A stretch of DNA of 64,000 nucleotides from Eledone cirrhosa (taxonomy: Eukaryota), in the NCBI GenBank assembly GCA_964016885.1, contig OZ024740.1, positions 78,492,001 to 78,556,000 of the forward strand, given 5' to 3'. Below are positions 191 to 57,140 of this stretch, piece by piece (positions within the stretch are counted from its first letter, which is position 1; each line of letters opens with the position of its first letter). A program made the position numbers and the translations under genes. The notes under the pieces are model-generated. The model saw only the letters and a list, made by a program, of their open reading frames with translations, searched no databases and was not told the DNA's origin.

Positions 191-990
191 AGCCTCGTTT
201 AAATGATTTTTTGTGTGGTTGATTTATGCTGATTTGGAGAAGAAATACTGTATATATTTTTATCTAATGATTCTATCGACTTACTTTTTATATATTGCTC
301 TGATTATTAATTATTTAATTAATTCATCATTGAACCACACCGTCAATGGTTGCCAAAAACATATATATATATATCTATGGCTTTGTCTAGTTTATATGTA
401 TATACCCTTTAAATTTTATATACTCCCGTAAGGTTGAGTAAAACTTTAGGCAGTATTCGGCTGCGCTTTCTAGCAACCAGCCTACTCGCCGACAGGCACC
501 AATCATAAACTTTCTGCCTTGACTACTAGCCACGTGATGATTCTTAGCCATTTTGAATTCGTTTCTGGCGGGGATCATGTAAGAAAAATCTTTGTCCAAT
601 TGAGTTATCTCCTGATGATTTCCAACCTCTTTGCTTTATCCAAGATCGGATATATCCCAAAATGGAATGAAATCGTCGGGGGTAGAGATATTTTGATGAT
701 TTTGGTAGGTTTTATATACATTTTTTCTTCTAACTTTGATTTTGTACCTAATTATGTATGGTTAACTATATGTCTAGTCAATTTCTATAGGCTATTAGAA
801 ATACTAGGTAAATTTTCTGTAGCTATGAGTCGCGAATAAAAAGCTATATAATTTATCTATTGTTTCTTCATAAGTATATTTTAAACTTATAGCCTCGTTT
901 AAATGATTTTTTGTGTGGTTGAATTATGTTGATTGGGAGAAGAAATAGTGTATATATTGTATCTAATGATTCTATGGAATTACTTTATAT
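189..990 (+). mobile_element. Penelope-like (pLTR-type) module with ~100-bp terminal direct repeats, flanked by (TA)n
   Basis: atagcctcgtttaaatgattttttgtgtggttga... at 189 and again at 889; hammerhead motif inside. Confidence 0.55.
606..690 (+). ncRNA. Type I hammerhead ribozyme motif with long stem II insert
   Basis: tatctc CTGATGA t ttcca...tggaa t GAAA tcgtcgggg GTA gagata; stem I tatctc/gagata, stem II ttcca/tggaa; stem III degenerate. Confidence 0.65.
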
Positions 991-1190
991 ATATATATAT
1001 ATAACTACAAGGCTCCGGACTGATTCTTTGTAAATTTATTTTCAACCTAAAAACTTTTCGGACTTTCGCACTTATCTATCTCCCTTACACCTCTCGCACG
1101 CAGTCTAGTATTGCCTGTGTGAAGTCACGGGGTTTCTGCGCATGCGCGTTCGTACGGTTGTCCTTCATGTTCCTATAACCATGCCCATTG

Positions 1191-1228
1191 CGAGCTGAAG
1201 ATCCGCTAAGGTGAAACAATTGTTCTCG
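1191..1228 (+). ncRNA. Minimal type I hammerhead ribozyme motif within a (TA)n-flanked module (about 1003-1327)
   Basis: cgag CTGAAGA t cc gctaa gg t GAAAC aatt GTT ctcg; stem I cgag/ctcg, palindromic stem III acaattgt. Confidence 0.7.
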
Positions 1229-1782
1229 GTATGGTGAACTAACTGTTGTGTAACCACTTCTACCTAACTCGTCCCTTGGACTGAGTGCTCTACCACTACG
1301 GATATTACCTTCCAGTGTTCCACAACTATATATATATATATATATATATATATATATATATATATATATATATATATATATATATATTTATATATATATA
1401 TATTCTCTTTTCTTCCTTTTTTCCCTTTTCCCATCTATTTTCCTTCTCTCCCTCCTCCGTTTCCCAATAACTTACCCAGTTATTGAACGCTTTGGGGGTA
1501 GATATATTGTCTTTAAAGCGTTGAAATATCCGAGACCCTCAGTAGACAACTGTCGAGGACCCGCCTCCCACTCTGGCTTCTTATTCTCATTCCATTTTTA
1601 AGCCTAACTTAACTAGCAGCTACACAGCCATCCTATTCTCTCTCTCTCTCTCTCTCTCTCTCTCTCTCTCTCTCTCTCTCTCTCTCTCTCTCTCTCTCTA
1701 TATATATATATATATATATATATATATATATATATATATATATATATATATATATATATATATATAGATAGATATATATATA

Positions 1783-1950
1783 GTCCTGGTGTGGGCTAAT
1801 GACCCAGAAACATGTTAATTGTTCCTCAAAGCCAATGTTGAACAAACAGGTGACGATCGGTCAACAGCACGGCACAGCTTCAAAATGGGCCTTTGTTTAC
1901 AAACGAATCGAACATTATTATTAATGTTCGATATAACCCATACGTACATA
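1783..1950 (+). mobile_element. Diverged Penelope-like fragment related to 26950-27120, with a decayed hammerhead
   Basis: Shares tgttgaacaaa..gtgacg, tttgtttacaaac and cattat..taa.tgttcg with 26998-27100; ctggtgt ggg ctaatga ccc a GAAAC at GTT. Confidence 0.4.
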
Positions 1951-2137
1951 TGTATATGTAAATATGTATATATGTGTGTGTGTGTGTGTGTGTGTGTGTG
2001 TGTGTGTGTGTGTGTGTGTGTGTGTGCGTGTGTGTGCGTGCGTGCGTGTGTGTACTTACAATTACATATATATATATATGTAAATGTAAGTATACACACA
2101 TATATATATAAATGTAAGTATATATATATATATTCGT

Positions 2138-2232
2138 ACCCCACCTCGGTTATGAATAACCATGTGCCTGCACCCAGAAAATGTCTATCCTGAGGCAAGG
2201 TGTTTTTGTGGAAGACCAGCAGTGGTTCATGC
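2138..2232 (-). mobile_element. 3' fragment of the SINE family at 5612-5949
   Basis: cctcggttatgaataaccat...cacccagaaa...gtggaagaccagcag matches 5620-5720. Confidence 0.55.
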
Positions 2233-2250
2233 CTATCTATCTATCTATCT

Positions 2251-53822: not shown

Positions 53823-53892
53823 CAGTATTTAGTAACATTTGGCTTCAAATCCCACCATGCTTAAGTATGTATGTGTGCGATCGCGCGCGCGC

Positions 53893-54204
53893 GTATGTAT
53901 GTATGTATGTATGTATGTATGTATGTATGTATGTATGTATGTATGTATGTATGTATGTATGTATGTATGTATGTATGTATGTATGTATGTATGTATGTAT
54001 GTATGTATGTATGTATGTATGTATGTATGTATGTATGTATGTATGTATGTATGTATGTATGTATGTATGTATGTATGTATGTATGTATGTATGTATGTAT
54101 GTATGTATGTATGTATGTATGTATGTATGTATGTATGTATGTATGTATGTATGTATGTATGTATGTATGTATGTATGTATGTATGTATGTATGTATGTAT
54201 GTAT
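53893..54204. repeat. Pure (ATGT)n microsatellite, about 310 bp
   Basis: Seen directly. Confidence 0.95.
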
Positions 54205-54519
54205 GTGTGCGTGTGTGTGTGTGTGTATACGAGGTATGTCAAAAAAGAAACAGGACTGGGGGTCGCAAAAAGAAAACTTCCATTTGTGTGTGTATATATA
54301 TATATATATACATATCTCTCTCTCTATCTATCTCTCCCTATATATATATATTATATATATATATATATATATATATAGTACCTTCATATACGTATTTATA
54401 TATGTCGTAACAAAACATGCCAAAACAAGACATACATGACAAAGTCTAGCGGGAATTCTCTGTTGTTGTGACGACGTGCCTCGACAATTGACGAAACCCA
54501 ACCATGCCAGTATTATTTT

Positions 54520-55190
54520 ATTCAAATCCCGCCGAGGTTAACTTTGCCTTTCATCCTTACGGAGTCGATAAAATAAACCACCAGTAAGTACTGGAGTCGA
54601 TTTAATCGACTTTTCCCTCCTCATCAAATTGCTGGTCTTGTGCCTAAAATAGAAACAATTATTTTATTTCAATATTTTAGTTCGGCAGCGTCGGACGCCA
54701 TACTTTGACGTATAGAGTTCAAATCCCGCCGAGGTTGACTTTAGCCTTTCATCCTTACGGGGTCGATAAAATAAAGTACCAGTAATGTACTGAGTAATTG
54801 CTGGCCTTGTGCCAAAAGTAGAAACAATTATTTTAGTTGGTTTGGATTGGCAGTGTCGGTAGAGAGTCGGACGCCATGCTTTGAAGCATAGAGTTGCGTC
54901 TCTTTATGATCTGAGTTCAAATCTCGCGGAGGTTAATTTTGCCTTTCATCCTTACGCGGTCGATAAAATAAAGTACCAGTAATGCATTGGTTAATTGCTG
55001 GCCTTGTGCCAAAAAGTAGAAACAATTATTATTAATGGCCTTTTATGTTCTGAGTTCAAATCCCGCCGAGATTAACTTTGCCTTTTATCCTTAGGGGTCG
55101 ATAAAAAAAGTGCCAGTCGCGCACTGGGTCGATTTAATCGACTTTCCTCCTCCCCCCAAATTTCTGGTCTTGTGTCTATATTAGAAACCA
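54520..55190 (+). mobile_element. Tandem cluster of four major-family SINE copies
   Basis: ttcaaatc.cgc.gag core at about 54521, 54718, 54916 and 55055, each ending tagaaac.attatt. Confidence 0.85.
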
Positions 55191-55499
55191 TTATTTTAGT
55201 TAGTTTCAGGCGCTCGACTGCGGCAATGCTGGAGCACGGCTTTAATGTTTGTTTCAGTTTTGTTATTTGTTTTGTTTTTTAAGGGGAAATCTTAAAAGAT
55301 TATTTTTTGAAAATAAAAATTCAAACGAAAGACACAGAACTCCAGAGTTTTCAGCCTTTGAGGTGGACTTCGAGTACTACCAACGGCACTGCTGGTCCTA
55401 CTGGGGTCACAATGTCTGACACAAGCCAAAACGCTGTCCATATATATATATATATATATATATATATATATATATATATATATATATATATATATATAT

Positions 55500-55903
55500 A
55501 GTTTTACGAGGTTTTTGATATGAAATCGTGTGCTGAAACAAATATTGTTATTCTTGGGGAGGGTCATATTTGTGTAATAATATTGCCAGAATTAATAACA
55601 GAACACACTCACAGACTAAATAAAGATGGTGTAAGCATACAATACAACGGGAGGAAACATAATAGCACCACTGACGATGTTGCAGATGTGCAACGAAAGA
55701 ACTTTGTTAGTCTATATATATGTGTTTGTGTCTATATTGTATCTGTATTTTTGACCGTTGGTCAGTCAATGGTAAACATTGAGGACCGAATAAATTACCT
55801 GATATAAAAGATACAGAAGCGGAAACCAACCAAACAGTGAGTGTGTTCTGTTATTAATTCTGGCAATATTACACAAATATGACCCTCCCCAAGTATAACA
55901 ATA
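55500..55903 (+). mobile_element. Penelope-like module with ~68-bp inverted arms enclosing a hammerhead motif, flanked by (TA)n
   Basis: 55542-55612 is the reverse complement of 55837-55903. Confidence 0.7.
55667..55708 (+). ncRNA. Minimal hammerhead motif
   Basis: acca CTGACGA t gttgca gatg tgcaac GAAAG aa CTT tgtt; stem I imperfect. Confidence 0.6.
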
Positions 55904-57107
55904 TATATATATATATATATGTATATATATATATATATAGCTGTTCGGATCTATTGAAACGACCGGAGCTCAGCCGTTGGGGTCCCGACTCAATTCCTAT
56001 ATATATATATATACATATATATATATATACACACATATATATATATATATATATACACACGCACACACACACACATATATATATATATATATATATATAT
56101 ATATATATATATATATACATATATATTTACATATATACATATACATACATATATACATATACATATATATGTATATATCTATGTGTGTAAGTGTTAGTGT
56201 GTATAAATACATACATATACTTACGTGGAAACACACACCTAAACTGTTGCGTATACACACATACCACATAATTACACACACACACAAACACACACACACA
56301 CACACACACACACACACACACACACACACACACACACACACACACACACACACACTGCCATACACATACACACATCAATCTTTGGTGATATTTCTCCGTC
56401 TCTGCCATTCTGTCGTTTTTCTTCTCTTGTCTCCATCTGCAAAATATTTGAAATGGTTCTCAGAGCATTTACTGAAGGCGGGGTAGAGGAGGGTGTGTGA
56501 GTGAAGGAGGGTGTGGGTGGAGGAGCAGGAGGAGGAGGAGTAGGTCAGTTTTAAGACATCCGATGTACCCAGTGACCTTGCACTCTGCCATATGGGTGTG
56601 GTAAGGAGTTCAGGGCGGTGCCTTCATTAAGTATATTCTTTCTTCAGCTTTCACACAGGTGTGTTTGTTGTTGTGCTCTGCTCTGCTGCTGTGCTATGTC
56701 ATGTGTGTGTGTGTGTGTGTGTGTGTGAAGGGGGGGGGGTGAGAGGGGAAGAGATGTGTATGGGGGGAGTTGGTGTGTGTGCGGAGGAAGAGATGTGTGT
56801 GTGGATGTGGGTGGAGATGTGTGCGTATGTGTGACTTTGTATGTGTGTGCGCGCGCGTGTTTCTCGGAATAAATAGGAGTGTTGATTATGTGTATGTATA
56901 TATACAAAGAGAGATTCCTCTCACATCATACACTCTATGTGTATATATATATATATATATATATATATATATACTGTGGATGATGTGAGAAGAATCTCTC
57001 TCTCACACACACACATATATATATATATGTATGTGTGTGTGTATATATATAAATATATATGTGTGTGTGTGTATATGTATATATATATATAGAAAAGGCT
57101 TCTACAG

Positions 57108-57140
57108 GACTAGAACTGTTTCATTCGGGAGAAATCATCA
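57108..57140 (-). ncRNA. Truncated hammerhead motif (lacks C3 and the 5' strand of stem I)
   Basis: TGATGA t ttc tccc gaa t GAAAC agttcta GTC. Confidence 0.45.

Follow-up and report, generated by a model that had tools for sequence, protein, structure and literature searches.

The window analysed here, a stretch of 64,000 nucleotides from Eledone cirrhosa (contig OZ024740.1 of assembly GCA_964016885.1, positions 78,492,001 to 78,556,000), is rich in microsatellites and fragments of long interspersed nuclear elements (LINEs). It also contains short motifs with the core and stems of hammerhead ribozymes, lying in (TA)n-flanked modules that resemble Penelope-like elements (PLEs). That the motifs are hammerhead sequences carried by PLEs can hardly be doubted. 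An initial annotation of the window placed nine cores and four decayed relatives at coordinates that proved correct, and proposed that they share a U.U mismatch at the base of stem II (positions 10.1 and 11.1) instead of the consensus purine-pyrimidine pair.

The motifs were evaluated with a type I descriptor (CUGANGA, stem II, GAAA, NUH and a stem I of at least 4 bp) that tolerates a pair, a mismatch or an extra base after A9 at 10.1-11.1. By this strict descriptor four of the nine listed motifs, those at 606, 1191, 11493 and 26944, are intact (matches at 612+, 1195+, 11568- and 26950+), and all four are mismatched at 10.1/11.1. Two hundred blockwise dinucleotide shuffles of the window gave 0.025 matches on average and never more than one. 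The remaining five (9705, 10192, 12710, 55667 and 57108) are damaged. The core elements CUGANGA, GAAA, A15.1-U16.1 and H17 occur in type I order at 606, 1191, 9705, 11493 and 26944, and not in the damaged motifs 10192, 12710 and 57108 or in a motif at 8614 that has A at position 4. Reading of the sequences bore out the U.U at 606, 1191, 9705, 10192, 26944 and 57108 and the C.A at 11493; the consensus pair is thus absent from seven of the nine. However, 12710 and 55667 carry G-C, and U.U is not shared across the whole family. Except for matches within LINE sequence, the window contained no conserved cores beyond those described here.

The best-preserved hammerhead (26944..26986, + strand) has U.U, a 6-bp stem I, a 4-bp stem II and a 6-nt palindromic stem III, with the predicted cut between 26980 and 26981. 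Its carrier (26706..27270, +) belongs to a family without an open reading frame (ORF), designated A, and consists of one unit of ~450 bp (26820-27270) and an inverted arm (26706-26826). A distantly related, truncated remnant with a broken core lies at 1785..1821 (+); in L280, a better-preserved relative, stem II begins with A.A. The octamer ATGCAAAT at 26862-26869, ~90 nt ahead of the ribozyme core, is kept in family A and in a diverged G-C relative (L111:5969). It could belong to a promoter of the small nuclear RNA type, as in newt satellite 2.

Two further U.U motifs belong to ORF-less family B (9513..10700, -), which comprises two tandem 487-bp units (9513-10399) and an inverted, 5'-truncated arm (10394-10700). 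The hammerhead at 9705..9786 (-) has a 6-bp stem II, a long structured loop and a palindromic stem III, with the predicted cut between 9710 and 9709; its first stem I pair is mutated to C.A. In the second copy (10192..10272, -) GAAA is destroyed and reads GUA. The C.A hammerhead at 11493..11572 (-), with a 6-bp stem II, a 37-nt loop, a 10-nt palindromic stem III and the predicted cut between 11497 and 11496, is part of ORF-less family D, of which the window holds most of one 560-bp unit (11421..11880, -). Family D forms long tandem arrays at other sites in the genome. At L185-L187 (G000:C28:45833000-45863000) its 560-bp units are grouped 2-6 at a time, with (TA)n-rich spacers between the groups, in a higher-order array with 26 ribozymes in ~21 kb.

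The U.U hammerhead at 606..690 (+) combines a 5-bp stem II and a 38-nt structured loop with a 6-bp stem I and a degenerate, non-palindromic stem III; cleavage is predicted between 684 and 685. It lies in an ORF-less unit of family E (189..1003, +) with a period of ~700-720 bp and a partial tandem structure, 189-295 recurring at 889-994. When five modules of the window were used as genome-wide queries, each gave between 1877 and 3399 first-look candidates, 40 of them scored. For family E the candidates numbered 3399, and the tandem period of 720 was seen once. Elsewhere the tandem periods were ~420-450 bp (family A), 490 bp (B) and 560 bp (D).

The 1191 hammerhead (1191..1228, +; U.U, 2-bp stem II, 8-nt palindromic stem III, predicted cut between 1224 and 1225) differs in having a coding carrier. 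It lies in the 5'-truncated 3' end of a Hydra-clade PLE (family C, 1004..1326, +), which comprises the last codons and stop of an ORF for reverse transcriptase (RT) and endonuclease (EN) at 1004-1023, a 3' untranslated region (UTR), the hammerhead and a tail, followed by (TA)n. In 15 of 25 fetched copies EN coding sequence was found upstream at a fixed distance and, conversely, 10 of the 15 loci found by their protein had the hammerhead with U.U downstream. At L289 and L290 the ORF has a hammerhead on either side, the period being 2.5-2.6 kb. The element is less than 3 kb long and has the layout of the Hydra clade, with a single RT ORF, a C-terminal GIY-YIG-like endonuclease and a pseudo-long terminal repeat (pLTR) containing the hammerhead. 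Translations of L287 and L290 contain DKT, the CxCX5C linker, CxxC and CxH and lack CCHH, and L290 reads RWR where the Hydra clade has an RWK motif. Matching the motif definitions in the parts of PMC8557442 that describe this clade, the protein would belong there; Pfam gave no significant match for the 1191-family ORFs. Within the window, the sole tblastn match to 17 PLE queries (1062-1172) was antisense and involved an off-frame part of the query, and was rejected as PLE coding sequence. An ORF at 55502-55804 had no significant Pfam match.

The other listed motifs are less well preserved. At 12710..12745 (+) there is an ordinary minimal hammerhead with an extra A and G10.1-C11.1, in which G12 is mutated and AAAA stands for GAAA. 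The motif at 55667..55708 (+) has an extra U, G10.1-C11.1 and just 2 bp of stem I. The U.U motif of family F (57097..57140, -) has a 4-bp stem III and an 8-nt loop and is 5'-truncated, C3 and the 5' arm of stem I being gone where a microsatellite cuts it off. A decayed minimal hammerhead at 9031..9066 (-), judged by inspection to be of the extra base plus G-C type like 12710, had zero copies in the 1.2-Mb genome sample described below, and a decayed motif at 27987..28028 (-) has a U3-A8 core (UUGANAA). Three of the four motifs annotated as decayed (1785, 9030 and 27990) are indeed so; the fourth, 8613, is not simply decayed but a fold-back from a conserved family whose core reads CAGAAGA rather than CUGANGA. 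The list of palindromic stems III has to be corrected in two places, since ACGU belongs to the G-C motif 12710 and not to a U.U motif, and stem III of 606 is not palindromic. Nor are the flanks as unrelated as was thought: 9705 and 10192 are tandem copies of the same unit, and the sequences at 1785 and 26944 are ~70% alike.

The fold-back at 8544..8669 joins two 3' ends of a second Hydra-clade family, with one hammerhead copy at 8614-8659 (+) and a mutated one at 8562-8612 (-). In 37 of 45 sampled copies this family has CAGAAGA, so that the invariant position 4 is A, and combines it with U.U and with stems I and III of 5 bp each. Because the genome contains 14,423 exact 45-nt copies, and only 155 matches to a shorter pattern with C, G or U at position 4, A4 is the master state. 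A Hydra-type ORF (94-100% identical) ends 938-941 nt upstream in 3 of 34 exact matches examined, and further loci are L111:1444(-), L225 and L313. Literature searches found no paper on a natural U4A hammerhead; U4C is a natural viroid variant, and the text of PMC3088659 that describes it makes no mention of A at position 4. A third, young Hydra-clade family has many open frames of 784-790 aa and a tandem period of ~3.53 kb (L195, L097). Its hammerhead has a U3-A8 core and G10.1-C11.1; stem II is long and bulged, and loop III contains a palindrome. The window holds a fold-back 3' end and tail of this family, truncated inside stem II, at 28223..28448, and a diverged 3' half of its hammerhead (GAAA and stem III) at 55956..55983 (+), neither of which had been annotated before, and a remnant at 50745-50805.

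In the 1191 and 8613 families, then, the hammerhead is in the 3' UTR/pLTR of Hydra-clade ORFs, and the linked RT and endonuclease genes that had been anticipated exist for these two. The few ORF matches near copies of families A, B, D, E and F lie at varying distances and were taken as neighbours. U.U is not limited to the Hydra clade because at L270:2632(-), a single locus, a U.U hammerhead lies 380 nt downstream of a C-terminal endonuclease of a non-Hydra, cysteine/histidine-bearing kind, likely the Neptune/Nematis type. We also considered whether U.U motifs might represent the missing hammerhead of Naiad elements. Six short U.U-type core strings gave three unrelated matches in the supplement of PMC8557442 as far as it was available, and the linked ORFs are Hydra-type, so this idea was dropped.

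As had been proposed, the motifs come from numerous independent families, Penelope-like or retrozyme-like, that are inserted in (TA)n. Each family keeps its own state at the first position of stem II: U.U is found in 66 of 71 copies of family A, 35 of 36 of family C and 15 of 15 of family B, and C.A in 74 of 75 of family D. The families also share the way in which their copies end. Mapping of genomic ends, which relies on families B, C, D, F and H (A and K were excluded because low-complexity matches inflate their counts), gave two fixed 3' ends per family, located, counted from the predicted cut, at +38/+115 in C (42 of 59 ends), +82/+197 in B (40 of 70), +83/+205 in D (26 of 46) and +20/+110 in H, whereas the 5' ends of inserted copies are scattered. 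Two RT start sites account for a PLE tail with two 3' ends (PMC11167929, in the sections available). Insertion into (TA)n, 5' truncation, an inverted truncated arm and two 3' ends are all present, as in PLEs, with tails of ~60-120 nt here as against 30-40 in the PLE definition. Most genomic copies are truncated or mutated relics.

To place the window in the genome, 120 evenly spaced 10-kb stretches (1,199,600 bases) were searched with the descriptor extended to the U3-A8 core, which returns the same four motifs in the window. The sample contained 151 motifs, against 1, 0, 2, 4, 3 and 1 in six shuffles; 29 of the 151 come from two stretches with tandem arrays. Extrapolation gives ~310,000-380,000 intact-looking hammerheads in the 3.0-Gb genome. 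The very high density ascribed to the window is therefore real in absolute terms but not local: with 62 motifs per Mb (4 in 64 kb), as against 126 per Mb in the sample, the window is average or below, and a local hotspot is ruled out.

Among the sampled motifs 86 are paired at 10.1/11.1 and 65 are mismatched, namely 39 U.U, 12 C.A, 7 A.G, 4 A.C, 2 C.U and 1 A.A, so that 26 mismatches are other than U.U. Genome-wide, an exact pattern for the short-stem U.U type had 52,583 matches on the plus strand versus 1,174 for a reversed control; the count for the other strand, which includes overlapping ends more than once, was set aside. Clustering of 445 motifs, after 12 duplicate loci had been dropped, gave 28 clusters present at two or more loci, several of them enriched through targeted searches: nine with U.U, nine with G-C, two with an extra base and G-C, four with A-U, two with A.G and one each with C.A and U-A. 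Mismatched clusters are thus mostly U.U. Close relatives can nevertheless differ at this position, a single superfamily including U.U, G-C, C.A and A.A. An abundant family with a AUAUAUAU stem III has a C.C mismatch four positions into stem II (L135, L247, L268, L108, L273 and others), its 10.1-11.1 position varying between A-U, G-C, A.C and U.U. Two families combine A.G at 10.1/11.1 with long stems II (L117, L118, L121, L101, L224).

Conservation of the fold was examined in two hand-picked alignments, of 12 rows for the superfamily of 26944 and 9 rows for that of 11493. Two-sided changes occurred in 6 of 13 pairs in the former and 3 of 15 in the latter; none of 500 shuffles reached the covariation score, and slid partners scored much lower. 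Stems I and II covary. Stem III is invariant in both alignments and so yields no evidence of this kind. In run X1 (7000 contigs) differences of at least 10% in the 43-nt 26944 ribozyme were confined to N7, to loop II and to a single stem I pair, which covaries. The family is also present in two runs from other organisms, X4 and X6 (6 and 7 contigs), where no change is listed at U.U.

Folding calculations bear on the form in which the ribozymes might act. In monomers the hammerhead fold is less stable than the minimum-energy structure, by 1-17 kcal/mol across motifs, for example by 6.8 kcal/mol for 26944 and 3.3 kcal/mol for family B. In dimers, by contrast, the double hammerhead of 26944 reaches -20.2 versus a minimum of -20.4 kcal/mol and that of family B -58.1 versus -58.1 kcal/mol, and in families A, B, D and F alike this fold matches or comes close to the dimer minimum, which it does not do for 606 or the U3-A8 family. 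The models support the view that palindromic stems III favour a double hammerhead.

Taken together we consider it probable, though well short of certain, that the motifs work as follows. Hammerhead sequences form part of the 3' ends both in many Penelope-like families and in tandem units that lack an ORF, the latter likely borrowing the enzymes of PLEs. Tandem transcripts would bring two hammerhead copies together, and cleavage, predicted to be slow and to occur mostly as double hammerheads through the palindromic stem III, would release unit-length RNA from read-through transcripts. U.U would be a tolerated, weaker stand-in for G10.1-C11.1. Uncut RNA may remain the main template for reverse transcription, which would begin at two sites downstream of the ribozyme and insert the product into (TA)n.

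Several observations weigh against this scheme. The predicted cut shows no excess of genomic 5' ends (0 of 50 in family B, 1 of 32 in C, 1 of 47 in D, 0 of 38 in F and 2 of 111 in H), so the inserted cDNA would derive from uncut RNA. Amplification may not need an active ribozyme, because the A4 family has been very successful with A at an invariant position and the 55667 family keeps its broken stem I across copies. According to the accessible parts of the respective reports, minimal PLE hammerheads cleave poorly in vitro (PMC4209133), in vitro insertion of an anole PLE proceeds normally with catalytic mutants, and RNA-seq revealed no ends at its cut site (PMC11167929). The lack of enrichment of genomic 5' ends at the cut fits both a ribozyme dispensable for insertion (PMC11167929) and low activity in vitro (PMC4209133). 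When folded in isolation, only one of the nine window motifs (26944) had z below -1.3 in the hammerhead stems with a core that was not mispaired, and the hammerhead of 606 is outcompeted by another fold that is more stable by 17 kcal/mol. The covariation is support and not a probability, since the aligned rows are related and the structure was taken from them. Finally, no ORF-bearing master was found within 1.5-kb flanks for families A, B, D, E and F.

These points lead to the strongest alternative, in which elements retain the hammerhead fold chiefly because the PLE protein uses it as a structural signal, for RNA binding or for RT start or pausing, with little or no cleavage. U.U, C.A, A.G and A4 would then accumulate because catalysis is not under strong selection. 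The numerical dominance of the A4 family would be expected, as would the dispensability of ribozyme activity for in vitro insertion of a Poseidon PLE (PMC11167929, as far as available). Moreover, 5' ends are lacking at the cut itself, but truncated and folded-back copies often end within the ribozyme: 71 of 111 ends in family H and 28 of 38 in F lie 21-60 nt upstream of the cut. In families H, F and 8613 such truncations and junctions cluster at 30-45 nt upstream, which suggests that RT stalls or switches template there. However, at least 28 clusters retain C3-G8 or the compensated U3-A8, G5, A6, A9 and G12-A14, and likewise A15.1-U16.1 and H17 (which by the descriptor is never G). The exchange of C3-G8 for U3-A8 is one reported to preserve activity (PMC3088659, in the available text), and the anole PLE ribozyme does cleave in vitro (PMC11167929, likewise). 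We therefore regard a purely structural role as unlikely, but as the most serious competitor.

It could also be argued that the mismatched motifs are simply dead ribozymes, the master copy having lost G10.1-C11.1 by drift while the element kept spreading. Genomic copies are mostly truncated or mutated, damage affects five of the nine motifs listed in the window, and the stem II base differs among close relatives within one superfamily. Yet drift does not easily explain why U.U recurs in nine clusters, in one non-Hydra PLE family and in PLEs of Hydra, sea cucumber and copepod, while other mismatches are mostly rare or absent, nor why the stems keep covarying in U.U and C.A lineages; on balance this account is decidedly improbable. 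Chance occurrence of motifs in AT-rich, repeat-rich DNA deserves practically no credence: relaxed descriptors do match in shuffled sequence (0-4 per 1.2 Mb), but the observed counts are ~80-fold or more higher, the motifs occupy fixed places in multicopy families, and the window shuffles, the 1.2-Mb sample shuffles and the genome-wide reversed control all refute it.

A wider reading of the same data, which we put forward tentatively, is that the Penelope-type hammerheads of this genome have relaxed their core far beyond the consensus, being either active variants so far uncharacterised or a fold that serves mainly as a non-cutting signal. It is based on the switching of the stem II base between U.U, C.A, A.G, A-U and G-C across some 30 families and on the fixation of A4 plus U.U in one much-amplified Hydra-clade family. 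If it were true, natural allelic series would make the role of PLE hammerheads directly testable. Insertion in vitro persists in catalytic mutants (PMC11167929, as cited above), and close relatives that differ at 10.1/11.1 (U.U, C.A, G-C) or at position 4 allow one to ask directly whether PLE hammerheads must cut RNA.

The window also contains other repeats. An apparently intact LINE ORF at 35262-38999(+), 1245 aa from stop to stop, has endonuclease, RT and C-terminal zinc-finger-like motifs and is presumably RTE-like. Further LINE copies at 13413-17806(+), 46743-49928(-), 57765-61077(-) and 2156-2905(+), which we take to be L1/Tx1-like, include a copy whose open frame spans 1061 aa and another that is preceded by a zinc-knuckle ORF1. 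Fragments of non-LTR elements at 51283-52582(+) and 19660-20181(+) contain a motif (HNRPDI...) that we assume to be that of a restriction-like endonuclease. A 43-bp minisatellite (21353-22260, 21 copies, 95% match) is followed by 3.4 kb of GT-rich low-complexity repeat (22296-25748). A near-perfect 162-bp inverted repeat with an 18-nt spacer at 28535-28876 is likely another fold-back insertion.

How do these hammerheads compare with known ones? The U.U feature had been presented as a variant that was not recognised before, and this headline claim is not new because the variant is already in print, in supplements, although it is apparently untested in PLEs. U10.1-U11.1 is a natural hammerhead variant cited as the most active mismatch (PMC3088659, available text). 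A Hydra magnipapillata PLE with U.U (U before GAAA) appears in Fig. S3 of the 2014 supplement (PMC4209133). In File S2 of PMC8557442, so far as available, 14 of 25 Hydra-clade families have U.U (two with identical motifs), among them PLEs of Hydra, sea cucumber and copepod, and all are tabulated as 'canonical HHR motifs'; the file also has U.C in one family and C.A in PLE-X1_cBra. No text was found in which U.U in PLE hammerheads is discussed or assayed, supplement file 1 of PMC4209133 and the bioRxiv supplements lying outside the search, and the accessible portions of PMC6765202, PMC13725137 and PMC6962438 contain nothing on it.

The expectation that canonical descriptors would overlook these cores was correct in part. 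Rfam misses them: its best match, HH9 at 26932-26998, scored 15.3 bits against a gathering score of 52, there was no match in 420-1320 or 9520-11320, and for the whole window there was no hammerhead among the 150 of 208 matches listed. Mispairs adjacent to the core are also discarded, unless tested, by the final filter of Perreault 2011 (PMC3088659, available text). In contrast, the 2014 descriptor permits an extra N10 and an extra N11, while the main text stresses G10.1-C11.1 (PMC4209133, as far as available). Re-implemented as printed there, it caught none of the four window motifs, 2 of the 151 sampled motifs and none of the 39 with U.U. With helix III freed it caught 32 of the 39 U.U motifs, and with loop II of up to 60 nt 120 of the 151, so the motifs escape it because their helix III and loop II are longer and not because of the mismatch.

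Likenesses to published systems, whose reports are cited here for their available parts, are numerous. The natural variants of PMC3088659 also include U.U, the U3-A8 covariation, 2-bp stems II and weak palindromic stems III, but U.U is a rare exception there whereas here it is as common as G-C at the family level. Minimal PLE hammerheads (PMC4209133) are likewise of type I with a short stem I, a palindromic stem III and predicted dimers, and likewise have a U3-A8 variant and inverted neighbouring copies; their consensus is an extra base with a conserved G10.1-C11.1, as against mismatches in 65 of 151 sampled motifs here. With the Hydra-clade PLEs of PMC8557442 our coding families share a short RT-EN ORF with DKT and CxCX5C and without CCHH, insertion into (TA)n, a 3' type I hammerhead and a palindromic stem III. 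The Hydra motifs printed there have no loop II longer than 10 nt, no U3-A8 core and no A4 core; the copy numbers here are far larger, many carriers are ORF-less, and U.U is undiscussed in that report. Families A, B, D and E resemble the animal non-LTR retrozymes (PMC7229834; bioRxiv 10.64898/2026.07.22.740005), for which mobilisation by PLEs has been proposed, in that their tandem units lack an ORF and each carry a single type I hammerhead. They differ from them (PMC7229834) in unit length, 420-720 bp as against ~170-400 nt, and in having PLE-type instead of canonical hammerheads, PLE tails and inverted arms. The window contributes scale and a natural set of variants for testing. Giant squid has 235 Rfam hammerheads (PMC6962438) and axolotl 120,000 (PMC7229834), a number exceeded by the hammerheads estimated for this genome, which are nearly invisible to Rfam.

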